This document shows positions 35,061 through 35,487 of a stretch of 64,000 nt of DNA, piece after piece. The stretch comes from Escherichia coli (lineage in GTDB: Bacteria; Pseudomonadota; Gammaproteobacteria; Enterobacterales; Enterobacteriaceae), in assembly GCF_003334335.1 (NCBI RefSeq), contig NZ_QOWQ01000001.1. The stretch is one strand, 5' to 3'. The number at the start of each line of letters is the position of its first letter. The stretch's first letter is position 1. A program made the translations under genes and the position numbers. The notes under the pieces are model-generated. The model was not told the origin of the DNA. It saw only the letters and a program-made list of their open reading frames with translations, and made no database searches.

Positions 35061-35201
35061 TGCTGTTGTCTGCTCCTGGTAAATGCTTTTTCCTGCACTA
35101 TGACACAATTTTGTGTCAGGTTGCATATACCGAAGCCGTCGGCGGGTAACATTTGTATCCGTGGTTAAAAGCGCAGCTTAAAAGATCAGGGATTTGCGCT
35201 A

Positions 35202-35432
35202 ATGCATTTCGCTCAGCGAGTTCGCGCCCTGGTTGTGTTGAATGGCGTGGCGTTATTGCCTCAATTTGCCTGTAAACAGGGGCTTGCGAACGGTGAACTG
35301 GTGCGCCTGTTTGCACCGTGGAGCGGCATACCCAGACCGTTGTATGCTTTATTTGCGGGGCGAAAGGGGATGCCTGCCATTGCGCGATATTTTATGGATG
35401 AGTTAACCACGCGGCTTGCCAACGGGGTCTGA
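35202..35432 (+). pseudogene. yqfE: Remnant of a LysR-family regulator (C-terminal fragment only)
   Basis: 76-aa ORF resembling the C-terminal end of a LysR substrate-binding domain, with no N-terminal HTH; sits between argP and rpiA. Confidence 0.5.
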
Positions 35433-35487
35433 ATCGCTTTTTTTGTATATAATGCGTGTGAAATTTCATACCACAGGCGAAACGATC

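Follow-up and report, generated by a model that had tools for sequence, protein, structure and literature searches.

The window, that is, the whole stretch of 64,000 nucleotides of E. coli DNA that was analysed, contains a 427 bp intergenic region between argP and rpiA, which extends exactly from 35061 to 35487; an earlier note on this DNA had placed it correctly. On the left side lies argP (34167..35060, minus strand), coding for the intact LysR-type regulator ArgP/IciA, as seen from the list of open reading frames and from the RefSeq annotation of the identical K-12 sequence (b2916, 894 bp). The right neighbour rpiA (35488..36147, plus strand) is intact according to its sequence and the K-12 annotation. 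In between, the plus strand carries a small open reading frame of 76 codons (35202..35432).

The part of the window from argP to rpiA (34167-36147) has an exact match with 100% identity in E. coli K-12 MG1655 (NC_000913.3). There the pseudogene yqfE (b2915), 231 bp long and flanked by rpiA and argP, is annotated at 3059381..3059611 on the minus strand, which corresponds to 35202..35432 of the window. Sequence, neighbours and coordinates are the same and no difference was found, so that the small open reading frame is the already known K-12 pseudogene yqfE, an identity that had escaped the earlier note. Every one of the 5426 complete E. coli genomes searched contained the argP–rpiA region, and the labels given to the reading frame by RefSeq vary between "LysR substrate-binding domain-containing protein", "type 2 periplasmic-binding domain-containing protein", "hypothetical protein" and no annotation at all. 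In the literature yqfE appears beside argP in a table of K-12 deletions (PMC10652928). Besides this list a search for "yqfE" gave one unrelated paper on B. subtilis and no expression data, and a search for "b2915" gave nothing relevant. The literature found on yqfE contains neither the chimeric start of the reading frame nor the reconstruction of a lost island presented below, both of which are details of a known pseudogene.

The earlier note had described the reading frame as the C-terminal part, about 76 residues, of a LysR-type regulator devoid of a helix–turn–helix (HTH) domain. LysR_substrate (PF03466) was the sole Pfam domain detected in ORF 35202..35432, residues 15-72 aligning to model positions 151-208 of 209 (E 7e-7), and an HTH domain was not found; the NCBIfam models gave weak matches only, to the C-terminal ends of LysR models. 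With the intact 298-aa orthologue of strain EC19 as tblastn query, residues 229-298 aligned to 35220-35429 of the window (E 2e-44), and the HTH and all the rest of the protein had no match in any frame of 35061-35487. The description as a C-terminal LysR fragment lacking the HTH was thus correct. Its length was overestimated: the reading frame does have 76 codons, but only codons 14-76 (35241-35432) derive from LysR, where they correspond to residues 236-298, and the DNA homology begins at 35240.

A functional LysR-type transcriptional regulator (LTTR) combines an N-terminal winged helix–turn–helix (HTH_1, PF00126) with a PF03466 domain of about 200 residues in a protein of about 300 aa. The intact orthologue has PF00126, which the window ORF lacks, and the 76 aa of the latter include only 63 that are derived from LysR. 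What it shares with the LTTRs are the 63 codons for the C-terminal end of the effector-binding domain; about three quarters of this domain are missing. Without these and without a DNA-binding domain the product cannot act as a LysR regulator.

The origin of the fragment became apparent from genomes in which the gene is intact, a comparison which the earlier note had proposed. EC19 and a further 246 E. coli genomes have a 298-aa LysR gene between argP and rpiA, and the remnant is the 3' end of this gene at the orthologous position, with 99% DNA identity. We mapped the region by comparing the window with the EC19 locus (designated L001) in blastn, complemented by tblastn. The first segment, 35061..35113, is upstream DNA close to argP that is common to scar and island genomes (window 34229-35113 corresponds to L001 1-885). 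At 35113 the homology to the island-bearing loci stops, as does the homology to the Citrobacter locus at about 35112. Among about 100 scar alleles this segment showed 3 variants in 52 bp, all of them singletons.

The 48 bp that follow (35114..35161) are specific to the K-12-type scar. With short-word blastn this sequence matched no intact locus, a second copy was absent from the window and from every E. coli genome searched, and a search for repeats revealed just short ones at chance level. The segment is strongly polymorphic (0.21 variants per site). Next to it, on the minus strand, lies the 3' remnant of a gene for an FMN-dependent NADH-azoreductase-like protein (35161..35239; 78 bp, about 26 codons), recognised by both blastn and tblastn. 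Window positions 35179-35239 correspond to L001 2593-2654 with 90% identity in blastn, and in other alleles the homology extends to 35162; at the protein level residues 182-207 align to 35238-35161 in frame -1 (81% identity, E 8e-13).

The LysR gene has left its final 193 bp, coding for residues 236-298 and the stop codon, at 35240..35432 on the plus strand, as found with blastn, Pfam and tblastn. Window 35240-36200 matches L001 4001-4961 with 99% identity, the LysR homology beginning at the third base of codon 235. There is a sharp junction at 35239/35240, where the azoreductase-like tail on the minus strand is fused directly to the LysR 3' end on the plus strand. The ATG of the reading frame (35202) and its first 13 codons are the antisense of the azoreductase-like tail, from which it follows that the 76-codon frame is an accidental chimera.

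Compared to EC19, 1346 bp are missing at this junction, namely the greater part of the azoreductase-like gene together with the divergent promoter region and LysR codons 1-234; the 5' 704 bp of the LysR gene are absent from the window. On the left side of the scar about 1.7 kb more are missing. A three-way alignment revealed no convincing microhomology at 35239/35240. As the 48 bp segment matched no source, the scar may go back to one deletion event or to two.

In the undamaged locus the order of genes is argP, a ferric-reductase-like gene, a DUF1471 gene, the azoreductase-like gene, the divergent 298-aa LysR gene and rpiA. In strain EC19 the space corresponding to the 427 bp intergenic region of the window measures 3.4 kb, with all four genes annotated. 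The genes for a ferric-reductase-like transmembrane flavoprotein, a DUF1471 protein of the YdgH/BhsA/McbA family and the FMN-dependent NADH-azoreductase-like protein lie on the strand of argP. The LysR gene lies on the strand of rpiA, 100 bp from the divergent azoreductase-like side, and stops 55 bp before rpiA. These four genes, coding for the ferric-reductase-like flavoprotein (PF01794 and PF08022), the DUF1471 stress-family protein, the azoreductase-like flavodoxin_2 protein and the divergent LysR protein, form a conserved cassette (L001 903-4193; further loci L112 3594-6915 and L114 5274-6897). Several Escherichia lineages (L004, L005, L007 and L016) have a ferric-reductase-like gene that is itself in fragments.

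The cluster of intact LysR proteins contains both PF00126 and PF03466. We considered whether the remnant could stem from a paralogue or a tandem duplicate of argP, and rejected this because the intact orthologue gave its best NCBIfam scores with PRK14997, YafC and AaeR (E 1e-49 to 1e-37) and not with the ArgP/LysG models (E 1e-14 to 1e-16 for ArgP). No curated NCBIfam cutoff was reached, PRK14997 scoring 168 bits compared to a cutoff of 380. Judged by these models, the intact protein is an uncharacterised LysR regulator and not a duplicate of argP.

Regulators of the LysR family are commonly transcribed divergently from the genes under their control. The intact locus resembles such modules, the LysR gene being divergent to the azoreductase-like, DUF1471 and ferric-reductase-like genes; from the arrangement of the genes we infer that the LysR protein controls these three. 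In the window the entire target side and the shared promoter region of the module are lost. The earlier note had taken the fragment for a probable degraded divergent regulator gene next to argP; the regulator was not paired with argP, its divergent partners being these three genes, which have also been deleted.

In a survey of 5426 complete E. coli genomes the 5' part of the LysR gene, which encodes the HTH, was present in 248 (in 247 at a coverage of at least 80%), and the whole island in 233; about 4.6% of the complete genomes have an undamaged locus. The 48 bp specific to the scar were detected in 5177 of the 5426 genomes, in one copy each, and complement the 248 genomes with the 5' part of LysR. 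The same synteny of argP, island and rpiA is seen in E. whittamii and two Escherichia sp., several of these having a broken ferric-reductase-like or LysR gene. A Pseudocitrobacter metagenome-assembled genome has this order as well, with no match detected for the azoreductase-like gene. In Citrobacter portucalensis only the azoreductase-like and the LysR gene are situated between argP and rpiA, and in Salmonella the four-gene module is found at a different locus. One of the more than 5,000 matches to the region is on a record classed as a plasmid, which may be a mislabelled or misassembled replicon.

The island was also lost by a different route. Strain WB61 (L015 2394-2825) does not have the K-12 scar; a single deletion of 2976 bp (positions 948-3923 of EC19; the two sides of the junction overlap by 8 bp) joins the 3' end of the ferric-reductase-like gene to about codon 210 of LysR, of which about 90 codons are left. 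As this deletion is independent and has other breakpoints, the island was lost at least twice. The resulting intergenic region of WB61 (432 bp) is nearly as long as that of the window (427 bp).

From these comparisons the feature is almost certainly the deletion scar of an accessory module, identical to yqfE of K-12, apparently neutral in its evolution and presumably without function. Fragments of two different genes that abut at a sharp junction are a derived and not an ancestral state, and we infer loss rather than gain as the direction of change. The ancestral argP–rpiA locus would have carried the small accessory module, with the LysR gene transcribed in the direction of rpiA and divergent from the azoreductase-like, DUF1471 and ferric-reductase-like genes. 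The lineage from which about 95% of the sequenced E. coli descend would have lost this module by deletion and kept 48 bp of untraced source, the 78 bp 3' end of the azoreductase-like gene (minus strand) and the final 193 bp of LysR. The antisense of the azoreductase-like tail would then by chance have supplied an in-frame ATG, resulting in the chimeric reading frame of 76 codons.

As stated above, the remnant ends close to rpiA, and its DNA could have acquired a role there. In this case the LysR 3' end would persist as upstream elements of the rpiA promoter, and deletions reaching further would be counter-selected. The upstream region of rpiA (35433..35487, plus strand) contains the sequence TATAAT at 35448-35453, read from the sequence as a putative -10 element; the corresponding -35 position would coincide with the yqfE stop codon. 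These 55 bp have a low diversity (3 variants), and the 57 bp at the end of the remnant (35376-35432) resemble them in this respect, with 4 variable sites compared to 32 in the preceding 136 bp (p=0.008). Furthermore, the two independent deletions, that of the K-12 type and that of WB61, both end well short of rpiA.

On the other hand, two deletion events are too few to show constraint, and a scan of 34950-35600 for promoter and terminator consensus sequences found nothing. In E2348/69 and E09 a repetitive element separates the remnant from the -10 sequence, and there is no sign that rpiA was lost. In E2348/69 (L002, about 1912-2183) this element has about 272 bp, and in E09 (L013) it is shorter; its insertion point, inside the putative rpiA -10 TATA, corresponds to window position 35451/35452, and a TATAAT is formed anew where the element ends on the right. 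Within the element are CGCTCACCCCAGTCACTTACTT and TGTAAGCTCCTGGGGATT, which we take to match the ERIC2 and ERIC1R primer sites, so that the element is probably an ERIC/IRU sequence. The only paper retrieved in a literature search for mapped promoters of argP or rpiA concludes that PhoB does not target argP, and an Rfam scan of 34900-36500 (E up to 1) gave no RNA family.

We therefore regard a function of the LysR 3' end as regulatory DNA of rpiA as possible, though doubtful. It is compatible with the deletion scar and does not replace it as explanation. In the wider sense, a scar that is partly active, either because the chimeric reading frame is translated as a small protein or uORF or, more plausibly, because the last 57 bp or so have been co-opted as rpiA regulatory DNA, seems improbable to us; co-option of these 57 bp would, if true, explain both their lower diversity and their sparing by the independent deletions.

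A second alternative is that the chimeric reading frame is translated and, as a small protein or as a uORF acting on rpiA, has a function of its own and is under purifying selection. The first 14 genome alleles gave a hint in this direction, the polymorphisms of the LysR part being strikingly synonymous in the old frame. In addition, strains with 97.6-100% identity in the 461-bp region, i.e., with DNA differing by up to 2.4%, share the annotation of one and the same protein, WP_000545308.1. We extended the sample by 86 metagenome alleles, recovered by a pattern spanning the junction, to about 100 scar alleles. In the 193-bp LysR part these contained 40 variants, 23 synonymous and 17 non-synonymous, of which 22 fell on third codon positions (p about 5e-5). 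Among the same scar alleles rpiA had 29 synonymous and 4 non-synonymous variants.

With the metagenome alleles included the signal of purifying selection mostly disappeared, and the excess was found to sit in variants shared with intact alleles. Of these, 11 are synonymous and 1 is non-synonymous, whereas the variants private to scars (12 synonymous, 16 non-synonymous) show no significant synonymous bias (shared versus private, p=0.005). Private singletons (2 synonymous, 7 non-synonymous) fit the neutral expectation, these counts being approximate as metagenome assemblies may hold errors or chimeric haplotypes. The variant density at codon positions 1 and 2 (0.14) equals that of the flanking non-coding and antisense DNA (0.16, p=0.73), and third positions show an excess (0.34, p=0.005). 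Such an excess cannot arise by selection on the remnant, whereas polymorphism imported from functional alleles can account for it. What appeared as a synonymous signal was inherited from functional alleles, either by descent or through recombination with them.

The state of the reading frame itself also has to be considered. The ATG-initiated frame of 76 codons is kept in 52 of the 85 spanning scar alleles. In 13 (including O157:H7) the start is TTG and a stop follows after four codons; 12 have a frame of 61 codons owing to a 45-bp deletion (35262-35306), and in the remaining 8 other truncated frames were present or the start region was not found. R54*, loss of the stop codon and further deletions, including frameshifting ones, segregate among the scar alleles. 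The first 13 codons are antisense junk, and the five variants found there in the 14 genome alleles, M1L and Q5* among them, are all non-synonymous. Moreover, translation would yield a quarter of a domain, which is not expected to fold alone. Taken together, purifying selection on the reading frame was not found, and the remnant appears to evolve neutrally; that the chimeric frame encodes a functional product is very unlikely.

The 45-bp deletion is in frame and lies between two GCCT repeats, which looks like replication slippage; about a quarter of the scar alleles carry it, including O157:H7.

It could further be argued that the ancestral state is the K-12 arrangement, the four-gene island having entered about 5% of the strains later and by chance extended a short reading frame that already existed. 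The island is indeed rare in E. coli, and the lower identity of the azoreductase-like tail (90%) compared to that of the LysR 3' end (99%) hints that some island-bearing E. coli may have re-acquired the island, with a crossover in the LysR 3' end. However, both truncated genes have full versions at the same locus in relatives within Escherichia and in Citrobacter, and a late insertion cannot explain why matching 3' ends of the two genes were there before it. Even re-acquisition in some strains would leave the scar a derived deletion. We thus give an ancestral K-12 arrangement hardly any credence.

The azoreductase-like tail of the scar has five fixed differences from six E. coli island alleles, all at third positions of the azoreductase-like frame, and several third-position states (35264, 35294) are common to B2-type scars and non-coli Escherichia. 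Together with the two degrees of identity these shared states imply that scar and intact alleles recombined near the junction, or that the island was re-acquired there.

Finally, gradual decay of the LysR gene by point mutations and frameshifts, as implied in the earlier note, has practically no chance of being right. Apart from the abrupt beginning of the reading frame without an HTH nothing was found in its support. In a tblastn with very tolerant settings (word size 2 and E up to 100) and two full-length LysR orthologues as queries, residues 1-228 gave nothing above noise in any frame of 35061-35487. The DNA homology sets in abruptly at 35240, with 99% identity from this position onward, and the adjoining upstream sequence belongs to another gene on the opposite strand. 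The same tblastn also answers the suggestion made there to look for residual upstream LysR homology in other frames of the region. Of the proposed degraded divergent regulator gene, a non-functional LysR remnant is what stands, produced by a deletion with a sharp junction at 35239/35240 instead of by decay.

The significance of the deletion scar is small, since an annotated K-12 pseudogene is confirmed to be what its annotation states. What we add is its precise origin, the loss of a four-gene accessory module of redox type combined with a start codon from the antisense of a neighbouring gene fragment. Caution is advisable with the annotation, as in thousands of genomes RefSeq calls this chimeric and apparently neutral reading frame a "LysR substrate-binding domain-containing protein", and the raw excess of synonymous polymorphism reflects variants shared with intact alleles and not selection on the remnant.

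On the argP side of the scar we noticed a perfect 8-bp inverted repeat, TGACACAA-TT-TTGTGTCA, at 35101-35118 upstream of argP, which extends across the scar junction at 35113/35114. In the island-bearing strain EC19 the right arm of this repeat reads TTGCGTTG and matches in just 5 of 8 positions. A palindromic site in the promoter region of argP may be a product of the deletion, either newly created or completed by it.
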